64,000 nt of DNA, from contig OY969807.1 in NCBI GenBank assembly GCA_963703285.1, forward strand, positions 864,001 through 928,000, given 5' to 3'. The stretch comes from an uncultured Nitrososphaerota archaeon (GTDB taxonomy: Archaea > Thermoproteota > Nitrososphaeria > Nitrososphaerales > Gagatemarchaeaceae). The notes beneath the pieces were generated by a model, which was not told where the DNA came from, searched no databases, and saw only the letters and a list, made by a program, of their open reading frames with translations. Shown piece after piece: positions 28,486-53,716 of the stretch (position 1 is the stretch's first letter; every line of letters begins with the position of its first letter). The translations under genes and the position numbers were made by a program.

Positions 28486-28633
28486 CGGCGCCGGGCCGAC
28501 TCGAACGGCCGACCAACAGGTGTTTGCAGCGAGTTTTCGCTTTAACAGCCTGCTGCTTTCCGGGCCCCTTATCGGGGCTCTACCATGCTCCTCGGACGAG
28601 TCGATAGCGACACGGCCTCTGAGCTACGGCGCC
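28486..28633 (-). tRNA. tRNA-Asn(GTT) with three introns (31, 22, 21 nt)
   Basis: Removing 28618-28588, about 28579-28558 and 28542-28522 gives a 74-nt cloverleaf: GGCGCCG TA GCTC AGCATGGTA GAGC A GCAGG CTGTTAA CCTGT TGGTC GGCCG TTCGAGT CGGCC CGGCGCC G. Confidence 0.9.
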
Positions 28634-50904: not shown

Positions 50905-52779
50905 TCAAGATACCATGAAGTTGTCCGCGATGTGCAGCCTGCGCAGCATGGCGCTCTTCTTCTCCTTGTGGGAGGCCATGCGCCTCAGTATGTCGTCGAG
51001 GGCCTTCACGGCGTCCACGACGTGCGGACCCTTGTTCAGCATGACGCACTCCGCGCCCTCCGAGAAGGCTGCGTCAGTTATCTCGGCGCGGGACGGGACC
51101 CCCGTCTTGGTCAGCGACTCGAGCACCTGGGTCGCCCAGATGACGGGCAGCTGAGCTGCCTCGCTGAACCAGAGTATCTCTTCCTGGATCTCGGCCAGCC
51201 TCTCCCAACCGCATTCGACCGCCAGGTCGCCCCGGGCTATCATCACTCCAGACCTGCGCGAGTTCATCGCAGCGAAGAGGAGGCTCGGGAGGTTGTCAAA
51301 GGCCTGCTTGGTCTCGATCTTGAGGACAATTCCGAGGTTCTCCGCTTCGAGCTCCTTGAGCCGGGCCTGCAGGGCCAAGACGTCTCGCGGGTGGCGGACG
51401 AACGACTGGCCGACCAGGTCGGCGTTCTTGGCAATGAACTTGAGGGCGTCGTCGTCCTCCTTGGAGATCGCGGGGAGGCGCAGGTCGGTCTCGGGCAGGT
51501 TTATTCCCTTATCGGGTCCCAGCCTCGCCCCTTCTGGCGGCGCGGAGGAGATCTCGACCAGAGCTCCATCCTGGTCGACCTTGATGACAACGCCGCCTAT
51601 CCTGCCGTCGTCAAACCAGATGCTCTCCCCGGGTTTCACAGACGCTATGACCTGCGGCACGGTGCAAGAGATCCGTGCTGACCGTTCGATGGAGCCGTCA
51701 ACCCTGCGTGTCGCCGGTCGACCAAGCTCTGGGGAGCGCGGGATGAGTAGGCGGTCTCCCATCTTGAGCAACAGCGGCACCGACATCGGCGCCATCTCGC
51801 CGATCGAGCCAATCAGAAGCTCCTCATCATCCCCCCTCCTGAGCGTCACGGCCTGACCCGTCTCGAAGTAGGCGGTCTTTCGCAACTCCGCAGTGATGCT
51901 CGTCTCCCCGACATCGACAACCGTGAGGGACCTTCCCGCGTCGCGAGCGTCCCTGAATCTCAACCGGTCTCCGGGCTTGACCGTACCCCTTAGTCTTACT
52001 CTTGCCTCGAGAGGGATCAGCTCGCCAATCCGCTGACTCGATGCGCCCTCAGAGCCTGTGCTCAGGACGACTAGCGCGGGCGCGACGACGGCACCCGTCT
52101 GGGACCGGCCAGGGCGCACCTTCTTCACCTTTGGACCAGGCTCTATCGGTCCCGTCCTCAGCTTCGGGCCCGGTATGTCCATTATCAGCCGGCACTCGCG
52201 CCCCGTAGCCGACCTCGCTCGCTTCAGGTTCTCTATCATTCCCGTCCACGTCGGCGGGTCGTCGTGGGCGCAGTTGATCCTCATGAGGTTCATCCCTGCT
52301 GTCAGGAGGCCTTCGACCAGGCCGTAGTCGCGGGCTGCCTCGGTGGGCATGGTGACCATTATGCGGACCGTCCGGTGCTTCGGAGAGGCGCCCAAGAGCT
52401 CGTCTGCGTTCTTCTTCAGGAGGGTCCGCCCCGCCTCATAGCTCAAGGAAGCGGGTCTGCGTGCTGGGACCGGCCCGTGGACCAGCTCGGCCAGGATGCC
52501 CGCGACTTCGTCGACGGTGGCGAGGACGTGCGCCTCCGACCTTCCCAGCGAGGAGAGTCCGACTGACGCCAGTCTCTCCTGGAGGTTTCTCAGGTCGGCG
52601 CGCCTGAGGGCCATGTAGTGTGAGAGGTTTCGTGCGCTCTCGAGGTTGCCTGGTTTTACCTCCCCCACTCGAGGCAGCGTCTCTGACTCGAGCTTCAGCA
52701 TCGATGCCCTGAGTGCGGAGACCTGGGCGAGGAGGTCGCGATAGAGCGGCTCCCGCAGGGCAGGGTCAGCTGTGGACAA
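50905..52779 (-). CDS. pyk: Pyruvate kinase, long form
   Basis: RINCAHD, GPKLRTG, KIET, MIARGDL, WATQVLES, ECVMLNKG. Confidence 0.93.
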   Translation of the reverse strand: MSTADPALREPLYRDLLAQVSALRASMLKLESETLPRVGEVKPGNLESARNLSHYMALRRADLRNLQERLASVGLSSLGRSEAHVLATVDEVAGILAELVHGPVPARRPASLSYEAGRTLLKKNADELLGASPKHRTVRIMVTMPTEAARDYGLVEGLLTAGMNLMRINCAHDDPPTWTGMIENLKRARSATGRECRLIMDIPGPKLRTGPIEPGPKVKKVRPGRSQTGAVVAPALVVLSTGSEGASSQRIGELIPLEARVRLRGTVKPGDRLRFRDARDAGRSLTVVDVGETSITAELRKTAYFETGQAVTLRRGDDEELLIGSIGEMAPMSVPLLLKMGDRLLIPRSPELGRPATRRVDGSIERSARISCTVPQVIASVKPGESIWFDDGRIGGVVIKVDQDGALVEISSAPPEGARLGPDKGINLPETDLRLPAISKEDDDALKFIAKNADLVGQSFVRHPRDVLALQARLKELEAENLGIVLKIETKQAFDNLPSLLFAAMNSRRSGVMIARGDLAVECGWERLAEIQEEILWFSEAAQLPVIWATQVLESLTKTGVPSRAEITDAAFSEGAECVMLNKGPHVVDAVKALDDILRRMASHKEKKSAMLRRLHIADNFMVS

Positions 52780-52996
52780 TCCGAGAAGTCACCCCGTTCC
52801 CGTGCTCGGTCTGTGCCAGCATCAGCTGCCCCCGACGAACCCTCGCTATATTAGCGGCTCGTATATGTTACTGGTTCGAGCGTGTTTCCATATGGCGGGG
52901 CTCTATGCAAGCTACATGGTTGGAAGGAGATGAGCCCGGAGCGATTTGATTTTAGAGTTTGCTTGGTAATCGGCCAGATAAGCCCGGTCCAATGGG

Positions 52997-53337
52997 TCAG
53001 TCCCGATATACGATTCGGTACATCATTGGCACAAGATCGTGAATGAGTTGTTAGGATGGCCTAAGAACTTGCCCCTGTCTTTTGAACTCCATGAAGTAGC
53101 CTCTACCCTTCTTCACACCGATTCGATCGCAAACAACAGTAGGAGAGAATACGGTCCAGCCTTGTCTTCTGAGTTCGTTTGCAATCCCTTCTTCATATTC
53201 CATTTGGGCATAGCGTCTCACTCTTTGTGCCTCGGAATCATGGGTTAAGCTGCGAGCGTGTATCTTCCGAAGCTCAGGATGTTTGATGTAGGAGTTCCTC
53301 CCTCGATTCTCTCCTTAGCAGTGAACTCGTGTCCCAT
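52997..53337 (-). pseudogene. Degraded PD-(D/E)xK endonuclease gene (HJR/VRR-NUC-like)
   Basis: Manual translation from 53203: MEYEEGIANELRRQGWTVFSPTVVCDRIGVKKGRGYFMEFKRQGQVLRPS*QLIHD...; internal TAA at 53053-53051 and an upstream frameshift; AT-rich. Confidence 0.7.
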
Positions 53338-53425
53338 CAACTTTGACTTGGCTTGCCGTTATAACCCCCAAGGAGTCTATCCCGCTTACCACTGTACCCT
53401 GCAAGGAATCTCTGGGACGAGATGA

Positions 53426-53547
53426 TGGGCCCGGCCGGATTTGAACCGGCGACCGACCGGTGTCTCCCGAACCTGGTATGAGCCGGTCGCTATGGTCGGT
53501 CGCTCTAACCGAACTTCCCGCTAGCTTTAGCTCTGAGCTACGGGCCC
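53426..53547 (-). tRNA. tRNA with CAT anticodon, most likely tRNA-Ile2, with three introns (19, 13, 15 nt)
   Basis: Removing 53532-53514, about 53504-53492 and 53476-53462 gives GGGCCCG TA GCTC AGTTCGGTTA GAGC G ACCGG CTCATAA CCGGT CGGTC GCCGG TTCAAAT CCGGC CGGGCCC A; the GGGCCC acceptor is Ile-type. Confidence 0.88.
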
Positions 53548-53716
53548 TGTGCCATCAGGGGCGGAGACGACCGTTTTAAGTCGTTGCGAGACGCCCTCCC
53601 TCCCCCAAGATGCTTCTGCTACAGGGAGGCGTCACGGCAATACAGGTATGTTCTCTAGAGAATAGCAAGGTCGAATGTTGCTTCCCTGAGTTAAGGATGG
53701 GCCGGGGGAGACTCGC

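Follow-up and report, generated by a model that had tools for sequence, protein, structure and literature searches.

On the minus strand of the window, at 53547..53426, lies a gene of 122 nt that very probably encodes a functional tRNA(CAU), most likely tRNA-Ile2, with three bulge-helix-bulge (BHB) introns of 19, 13 and 15 nt that would be spliced by the standard EndA/RtcB mechanism. The window, a stretch of 64,000 nucleotides (G000:C1:864001-928000), belongs to the genome of an uncultured Nitrososphaerota archaeon, which consists of a single contig (2,252,123 bp, 60.6% G+C). The evidence comes from the cloverleaf obtained after removal of the inserts, from the comparison with orthologous genes, and from a census of the tRNA genes of the genome.

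Anatomy and detection of the tRNA(CAU) gene

The gene was parsed with a purpose-written solver, which combines a cloverleaf template with up to three, later four, inserts and filters each insert by a relaxed BHB rule. The best parse places the inserts at tRNA positions 16-34, 44-56 and 72-86, corresponding to the sites 15/16 (after GCTCAG), 22/23 (after the ...AG of the D-loop) and 37/38; these are the sites and lengths that an earlier note had read directly from the DNA. On the reverse complement, an acceptor strand of 7 nt opens the gene, and a perfect T-arm is followed at its end by the complementary acceptor strand and A73. Once the three inserts are taken out, a 75-nt cloverleaf remains that has no mismatch in its D, anticodon and T stems and evaluates at -35.9 kcal/mol; ARAGORN with the intron option switched off recognises it as a 75-nt tRNA (cat). 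The features of the gene are as follows.

53426..53547, minus strand: tRNA(CAU), most likely tRNA-Ile2; 122-nt precursor body, 75 nt when spliced; CCA not encoded; identified by Rfam, the solver, ARAGORN and 18 orthologues
53533..53547, minus strand: exon 1; acceptor 5' strand, positions 8-9, D-stem 5' strand, A14 and G15
53514..53532, minus strand: intron 1, 19 nt, at 15/16; relaxed BHB with 3/4 central pairs and a 4-bp inner helix
53505..53513, minus strand: exon 2; remaining D-loop (with G18 and G19) and G22
53492..53504, minus strand: intron 2, 13 nt, AGCGACCGACCAT, at 22/23; 4-pair central helix with the D-loop GGTT
53477..53491, minus strand: exon 3; D-stem 3' strand, G26, anticodon-stem 5' strand, anticodon loop through A37 (anticodon CAT)
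53462..53476, minus strand: intron 3, 15 nt, at the canonical site 37/38; 3/4 central pairs, outer helix formed by the anticodon stem
53426..53461, minus strand: exon 4; A38, anticodon-stem 3' strand, 5-nt variable loop, T-arm, acceptor 3' strand, discriminator A73
53574..53579, minus strand: TTAAAA box, 27-32 nt upstream of the mature 5' end

The TTAAAA box is likely an archaeal TATA/promoter element; a pattern search located an A/T-rich box in 15 of the 19 orthologous genes, at -31 to -34, and the remaining four have TTATTAA in the same place. The gene is situated in a gap of about 940 nt (window 52780-53716) without any ORF of at least 80 aa, flanked by a pyruvate-kinase-like ORF (50905-52779, minus strand) and by a 101-aa ORF without a Pfam match.

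The warning that standard annotation could miss such a gene was borne out. On the window, ARAGORN with default settings reported 0 genes, and the Rfam search of the whole window gave 0 tRNAs at the gathering threshold and 0 at E 0.01. With its intron option ARAGORN detects both tRNA genes of the window, but it fuses the inserts into one false intron. When the Rfam tRNA model was applied to a 401-nt region alone, it gave window 53426-53547 (-) with 43.6 bits (gathering score 29), and the whole-genome Rfam search returned the gene at identical coordinates, again with 43.6 bits.

Conservation of the exons and variation of the inserts

Orthologues were searched for with a pattern of 35 nt from the 3' exon, allowing at most 3 mismatches. 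This pattern had matches in 16 of the 151 genomes that were sampled within the order and in 6 of 21 genomes of the genus, with this genome counted in both cases, and a degenerate form of it gave 15 stretches in the named genome collection. The resulting orthologue table contains 19 genes, taken from 16 genome handles and 3 named loci; L044-L051 and L053-L056 were left out of it, either for having the same or nearly the same parses as genomes already entered or for giving no parse. Four of the 16 matches within the order came from another family (L039-L042) and were dropped: L039, L041 and L042 parse as tRNA-Trp, and L040 gave no parse.

The mature length is 75 nt in all 19 orthologous genes, and the other 18 differ from the gene in the window by 1-7 bases, whereas the sequences and lengths of the inserts vary widely. 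An insert at 37/38 is present in 19/19 genes (12-22 nt) and one at 15/16 in 16/19 (15-22 nt); an insert at 22/23 was found in two, this genome and G126. The inserts have 3-4 of the 4 central pairs in 16/16 cases at 15/16 and in 17/19 cases at 37/38, and compensatory changes can be observed in their inner helices. Orthologues that lack an insert read straight across the predicted junction, by which the mature sequence is fixed independently of any motif, with the limit that this read-through does not fix the cut site within the 8-nt repeat of intron 2 described below. The splice assignment, for which the earlier note had asked whether a functional tRNA would result, thus yields a tRNA both in the ARAGORN call on the spliced form and in the sequences of the relatives.

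The triple-intron form is common in environmental relatives. A scan of metagenomes for an 11-20-nt insert at 22/23 of orthologues of the gene gave 29 contigs, 24 of which also have inserts at 15/16 and 37/38. One metagenome contig (L077, 1174 nt) carries a 140-nt orthologue that parses with four inserts of 16, 13, 15 and 21 nt, at 15/16, 22/23, 37/38 and 43/44; for archaea outside the Asgard group, the available text of the cited reviews gives three introns per tRNA gene as the maximum.

We also observed that the mature sequence of the gene is nearer to its orthologues in a neighbouring genus (1-3 differences) than to those of the five congeners found (5-7 differences; L027, L064-L067 and L031-L037 were compared). 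Transfer, recombination or a coarse genus boundary are possible explanations.

Splicing motifs and proposed processing

A BHB has two bulges of 3 nt at the exon-intron junctions with a 4-bp helix between them. With the register taken from the canonical intron, intron 2 forms 4/4 central pairs and has a strict BHB, and introns 1 and 3 fit relaxed BHB forms (HBh'/hBH) with 3/4 central pairs each. The central helix at 22/23 is paired in all four columns in 23/23 distinct exon/intron combinations from 30 loci, and its variation includes TA/TG and CG/TG/TA. It is important to mention that BHB counts on solver calls are partly circular, because the solver filters candidate introns by a BHB-like rule. 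Moreover, the MFE fold of the whole precursor shows none of the three BHB motifs and pairs the first repeat copy and intron 2 with positions 90-97, and relaxed BHB motifs are described as frequent by chance in the available text of a recent preprint (bioRxiv 10.64898/2026.10.13.758758). For both reasons the structure scores alone are insufficient for the claim; the relaxed BHB score adds little, and it is therefore the orthologue comparison that bears its weight.

These same observations bear on whether the gene could be a decaying or unspliceable pseudogene, or have true exon/intron boundaries that differ from the three-insert parse. The absence of BHB motifs from the MFE fold would be in keeping with such a reading, as would the lower-scoring solver parses, which place the D-arm boundaries differently. 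Against it, every stem is perfect once the gene is spliced, relatives without a given insert show exactly the predicted joined sequence at each junction, and, in a census with one copy per anticodon, no other gene is available for one of the two elongator CAU functions. We therefore regard a pseudogene or another set of boundaries as highly improbable and retain the functional three-intron gene.

The genome encodes two tRNA_int_endo (EndA) genes, each with N- and C-terminal domains (PF01974/PF02778), and RtcB (565.6 bits). A broad-specificity heterotetrameric splicing endonuclease has been described for intron-rich lineages (PMC4090602 and PMC4033280, in their available text), and the presence of two paralogues suggests that a heterotetrameric arrangement may also apply here.

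On this basis, the following processing is proposed. The primary transcript would contain three short intervening sequences at 15/16, 22/23 and 37/38, and each pair of junctions would be able to form a BHB, strict at 22/23 and relaxed at 15/16 and 37/38. The splicing endonuclease, presumably composed of the two EndA paralogues, would cut within the two 3-nt bulges, and RtcB would ligate the exons to the 75-nt cloverleaf. Finally, TiaS would convert C34 to agmatidine, so that the tRNA would read AUA. The splicing itself, the order in which the introns are removed, the agmatidine modification and the isoleucine identity are what we infer from the sequences.

Identity of the tRNA

The census described below contains three CAT tRNAs, namely an initiator-like one, a second elongator and the gene in the window. 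The initiator-like tRNA (G000:C1:1365863) has A1:T72. The second elongator (G000:C1:1626489, minus strand), which also has three introns, differs from the gene in the window in its acceptor stem and D-stem and is 0.62 identical to it; its acceptor start is one that we take to be usual for archaeal elongator tRNA-Met. Compared with tRNA-Ile(GAT), the gene in the window has an identity of 0.72 and has in common 6/7 acceptor pairs, the D-stem and A73. The tRNAs most similar to it overall are Lys and Arg species with a common acceptor stem (0.73-0.79).

The inventory supports the Ile2 identity. No TAT (UAU) tRNA was found among the 45 genes of the census, and among 205 ORFs with 500 codons or more, 27.7% of the Ile codons are ATA. 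A check for TiaS had been suggested as support for the Ile2 identity, and a full-length TiaS (457 aa) with TCKD, FLD, OB fold and zinc ribbon is indeed encoded; its role in the formation of agmatidine in tRNA-Ile2 is described in the available text of PMC11947777. The CAT inventory, TiaS, the use of AUA and the lack of a TAT tRNA are the reasons for which the gene is read as tRNA-Ile2.

The two non-initiator CAU tRNAs could also be assigned the other way round, with the gene in the window as the elongator tRNA-Met and the gene at G000:C1:1626489 (minus strand) as tRNA-Ile2. Both have CAT, A37 and A73, and ARAGORN labels both as Met because it cannot tell them apart. The resemblance to tRNA-Ile(GAT) and the different acceptor stem and D-stem of the other CAU tRNA speak against this exchange, which we consider improbable. 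By the logic of the inventory together with the resemblance to tRNA-Ile(GAT), the identity as tRNA-Ile2 is thus strongly favored.

tRNA introns throughout the genome

Candidate tRNA genes were collected from Rfam hits, from a scan for a T-arm with an acceptor stem, and from searches with an nhmmer profile of solved tRNAs, and were then parsed with the solver. For iMet, Arg CCG, Pro TGG and Ile GAT, where the top parse of the solver looked wrong, the parse was set by hand. A simple CTCATA-loop scan recovered just 2/3 of the CAU tRNAs. The census comprises 45 genes that fill 45 anticodon slots; of the usual 46 anticodons, Ser CGA was not found in it. ARAGORN without the intron option called all 45 spliced census sequences with the expected anticodon and made only 16 calls on the raw genome.

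The earlier note had suspected an unusually high density of tRNA introns and had proposed counting them across the genome. The count agrees with this suspicion: 39 of the 45 genes are interrupted, by a total of 68 introns (1.51 per gene), with no intron in 6 genes, one in 16, two in 17 and three in 6. The genes with three introns are those of Ile2, Asn, Phe GAA, Ala GGC, elongator Met and Ser TGA. The sites used are 37/38 (23 introns), 15/16 (10), 59/60 (6), 29/30 (5), the second base of the variable loop (4) and 22/23 (3).

Related genomes were compared by a crude measure of intron load, the lengths of Rfam hits at E 0.001 or better. By this measure the relatives of the same family also look intron-rich: four genomes with 22-34 Rfam hits each had hits of intron-less length in 9/22, 8/27, 2/32 and 6/34 cases, and a genome of another family in 18/33.

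Two genes of the census are the only ones located in the window, the tRNA(CAU) gene and a tRNA-Asn gene, and both carry three inserts at identical sites, as had been noticed earlier from the sequence. The tRNA-Asn gene was recognised by the solver and by ARAGORN on its spliced form.

28486..28633, minus strand: tRNA-Asn (GTT), 148 nt
28618..28588, minus strand: insert of 31 nt at 15/16
28579..28558, minus strand: insert of 22 nt at 22/23, which can be slid to 25/26
28542..28522, minus strand: insert of 21 nt at 37/38

The introns of the tRNA(CAU) gene had been described as unrelated in sequence to those of tRNA-Asn, and this holds for the genome as a whole, in which their best identity to any other intron is 0.62-0.69, within the shuffled range.

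Several other elements were observed during the census. The tRNA-Arg(CCT) gene (L010:1501-1596, i.e. G000:C1:999287-999382) and the tRNA-Gly(TCC) gene (G000:C1:1420064-1420185) parse only with C33 in place of the near-universal U, and for tRNA-Ile(GAT) (L003, G000:C1:1085654-1085750) the parse with the best BHB, which has a 22-nt intron at 15/16, gives a D-loop that lacks the usual GG. The longest intron of the census, of 67 nt, lies at 37/38 of tRNA-Trp (G000:C1:1332185-1332325). The tRNA-Lys(CTT) gene, with introns at 37/38 and 53/54, spans the contig ends (G000:C1:2252013 to 2), which agrees with a circular, closed assembly. A Leu-like element at G000:C1:597234-597339 lacks a matching 5' acceptor strand, and neither for it nor for several weak nhmmer hits was a credible parse obtained. 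Orphan tRNA 3' fragments were found by nhmmer at G000:C1:598098-598124 and 598925-598947, and also at 2148852, 963762, 956124 and 197155. The Leu-like element and these fragments may be attachment-site remnants of integrated elements.

Gain, loss and copying of introns

The occupation of the same three sites in both genes of the window had led to the suggestion of position-specific intron gain. The high density and a hot spot at 15/16, with its 10 introns, support part of this suggestion; gain by itself is too simple, and the orthologues fit shared descent with frequent loss. In tRNA-Asn of seven congeners the three inserts occur in all combinations, and those that occupy one site are visibly homologous, which argues for shared descent with repeated loss and not for repeated site-specific gain.

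Copying between genes occurs as well. In the congener G159 (L067, L074), the 15/16 introns of tRNA-Ile2 and tRNA-Asn are identical at 21 of 22 positions, which is a clear case of an intron copied between two tRNA genes with common flanking exon sequence. Within the genome studied here, no intron families between tRNA types were found beyond noise and none above an identity of 0.80; pairs with an identity of at least 0.70 number 13, versus 3-7 in shuffles.

A different arrangement was observed on the metagenome contig L076. A 5' gene fragment that ends in the anticodon loop (L076:993-1061) contains a 13-nt intron that is the same as the one in the window, and a full copy about 1.4 kb downstream (L076:2449-2579), from which the 13-nt intron is absent, instead carries one at 43/44. 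The arrangement resembles an integration border at which the 5' part of the gene was duplicated.

Origin of the 13-nt intron

The 13-nt intron repeats the adjacent exon, as previously noticed: its first 8 nt, AGCGACCG, are also the first 8 nt of exon 3. The resulting slide of 8 nt is the largest among the 68 introns, the next being 4. Compared with the 13 nt downstream, the intron is identical at 9/13 positions, the first 8 of them contiguous, a value that no null window reached and that is the extreme of 113 intron-exon tests. The proposed comparison of introns with their flanking exons therefore singled out this one intron, but no general excess of intron-exon similarity exists among all introns, with p<0.05 in 7% of the tests.

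An exact copy of the exon in the place of the intron, AGCGACCGGCTCA, would already form all 4 central pairs, three as G-T, together with a single inner and a single outer pair. The present intron departs from this copy at four bases, namely positions 9 and 11, where the changes turn G-T into Watson-Crick pairs, and two bulge bases. At 30 loci with a 13-nt insert, 22 distinct 13-mers were found; their consensus retains the exon bases at positions 1-8 and 10. The variant AGCGACCGGCCAT, present on two contigs, also retains the exon base at position 9 and is identical to the exon at 10/13 positions, and the G126 variant CGTAACCGACCAA matches it at only 7/13.

These data are consistent with the 13-nt intron being a tandem duplication of exon positions 23-35, which could have been spliced at once because bases 8-11 of the upstream duplicate pair with the D-loop GGTT, and which was later tuned and lost repeatedly. 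In favor of a duplication are the contiguous match and the record slide, the four central pairs of the exact copy, the nature of the four differences (two improve pairs, two lie in a bulge), and the exon-like consensus of the variants, with AGCGACCGGCCAT closest to the exon. On the other hand, this is a single case picked post hoc from a set of introns that shows no excess as a whole, the motif itself constrains positions 2, 7 and 8-11, no exact or near-exact duplicate exists among the 22 variants from 30 loci, and the G126 variant is poorly matched. We consider that this account comes close to an even chance of being correct.

The intron could instead have been inserted or copied like other archaeal tRNA introns, by gene-to-gene transposition or as the relic of a mobile element, with its likeness to the exon arising from motif constraints, chance, slippage or gene conversion. 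Copying between genes occurs in the genus, as judged from the G159 introns, and the L076 fragment with the 13-nt insert beside an insert-less full copy looks like an integration border; intron transposition and an integration model are, moreover, published routes according to the available literature. Such an origin is opposed by the lack of any intron in the genome that resembles the 13-mer (best 0.69, in the shuffled range) and by the exon match at positions 1 and 3-6 in 50-91% of the distinct variants, although the motif does not demand it. An insertion or copying event is accordingly a real possibility, somewhat under an even chance.

The suggestion of a tandem-duplication origin has thus gained support, from the outlying 9/13 match and from the 22 variants, and remains a suggestion. 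A tandem duplication in the ancestor of the clade is plausible from the sequences and fits the data, though unproven. In its complete form, the duplication account would hold, tentatively and with less than even confidence, that the intron arose de novo by a 13-bp tandem duplication that was BHB-ready, was improved by two changes from G-T to Watson-Crick pairs, and carries an 8-bp repeat prone to precise loss by slippage. As the 8-bp repeat permits a precise slippage deletion, it could explain the patchy distribution of the 22/23 intron. If the duplication is true, an archaeal tRNA intron would have been born without a donor intron and without a mobile element. In our literature search we found no paper that proposes the birth of archaeal tRNA introns by tandem duplication.

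For spliceosomal introns, gain by tandem genomic duplication has been proposed. The two cases are alike in that removal of the duplicated exon segment restores the original sequence; they differ in the splicing signals, which are duplicated AGGT splice sites in the spliceosomal case and a protein-cut RNA structure (the BHB) here.

Comparison with known systems

Multi-intron tRNA genes of this kind have already been published, and tRNAscan-SE 2.0 handles them with a dedicated routine. According to the available text of the cited papers, archaeal tRNA genes contain up to three introns, with the Thermoproteales as the extreme (PMC4090602, PMC4033280, PMC8450103); in Pyrobaculum islandicum, tRNA-Pro UGG has introns at 25/26, 37/38 and 56/57, and Pyrobaculum calidifontis holds the record with 71 introns in 46 tRNA genes (1.54 per gene). 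Multiple noncanonical introns have already been described in Crenarchaeota and Thaumarchaeota, and 22/23 is a known noncanonical site. The gene thus belongs to an already known class.

As in the Thermoproteales, the genome studied here has at most three short BHB-type introns per gene at canonical and noncanonical positions, introns in over half of its tRNA genes, and two endonuclease paralogues. Its 1.51 introns per gene, against 1.54 in P. calidifontis, equals the published non-Asgard record, in a family of the Nitrososphaerota; an intron load at the level of the Thermoproteales record is therefore also found in this phylum. The differences are the lineage itself and the intron families, since 28% of the introns of the Thermoproteales are reported to fall in families of at least 80% identity, in the published part available, and none such occur here.

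The noncanonical introns of Thaumarchaeota treated in tRNAscan-SE 2.0 are alike in the broad lineage and in the presence of multiple noncanonical introns; this program applies BHB models iteratively, including a clade-specific one for which Thaumarchaeota served as the training set. The number given for them in the available text, 107 over the genomes analysed, is a total rather than a density per gene.

The Asgard archaea, as described in the available text of the preprint bioRxiv 10.64898/2026.10.13.758758, are similar in having D-arm inserts missed by standard tools, many separate gains and losses, and few shared families; they differ in belonging to another phylum and in having 2.2 introns per gene in some lineages and up to five in a gene. 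The text of this preprint nowhere uses the words tandem, slippage or de novo, and in its available parts, as in the reviews, the mechanism by which introns arrive in archaeal tRNA genes is stated to be unknown.

With respect to the tRNA-Ile2(CAU)/TiaS system of Archaea, the gene shows no difference in kind. An extra CAU tRNA, a complete TiaS, no UAU tRNA and the use of AUA are all present, and the three introns are its only extra.

The practical consequence of such intron loads is that ARAGORN with default settings and Rfam with filters miss over half of the tRNA genes of this genome, and missed tRNA genes affect completeness estimates and the inference of codon usage in MAG-rich lineages. The 13-nt intron, in turn, offers a small test case for the entry of introns, being exon-like, known in 22 natural variants, and present or absent among very close relatives. 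Set beside the known systems, the genome is extreme while the gene itself is nothing out of the ordinary for its known class, and its exon-like 13-nt intron is the notable detail.
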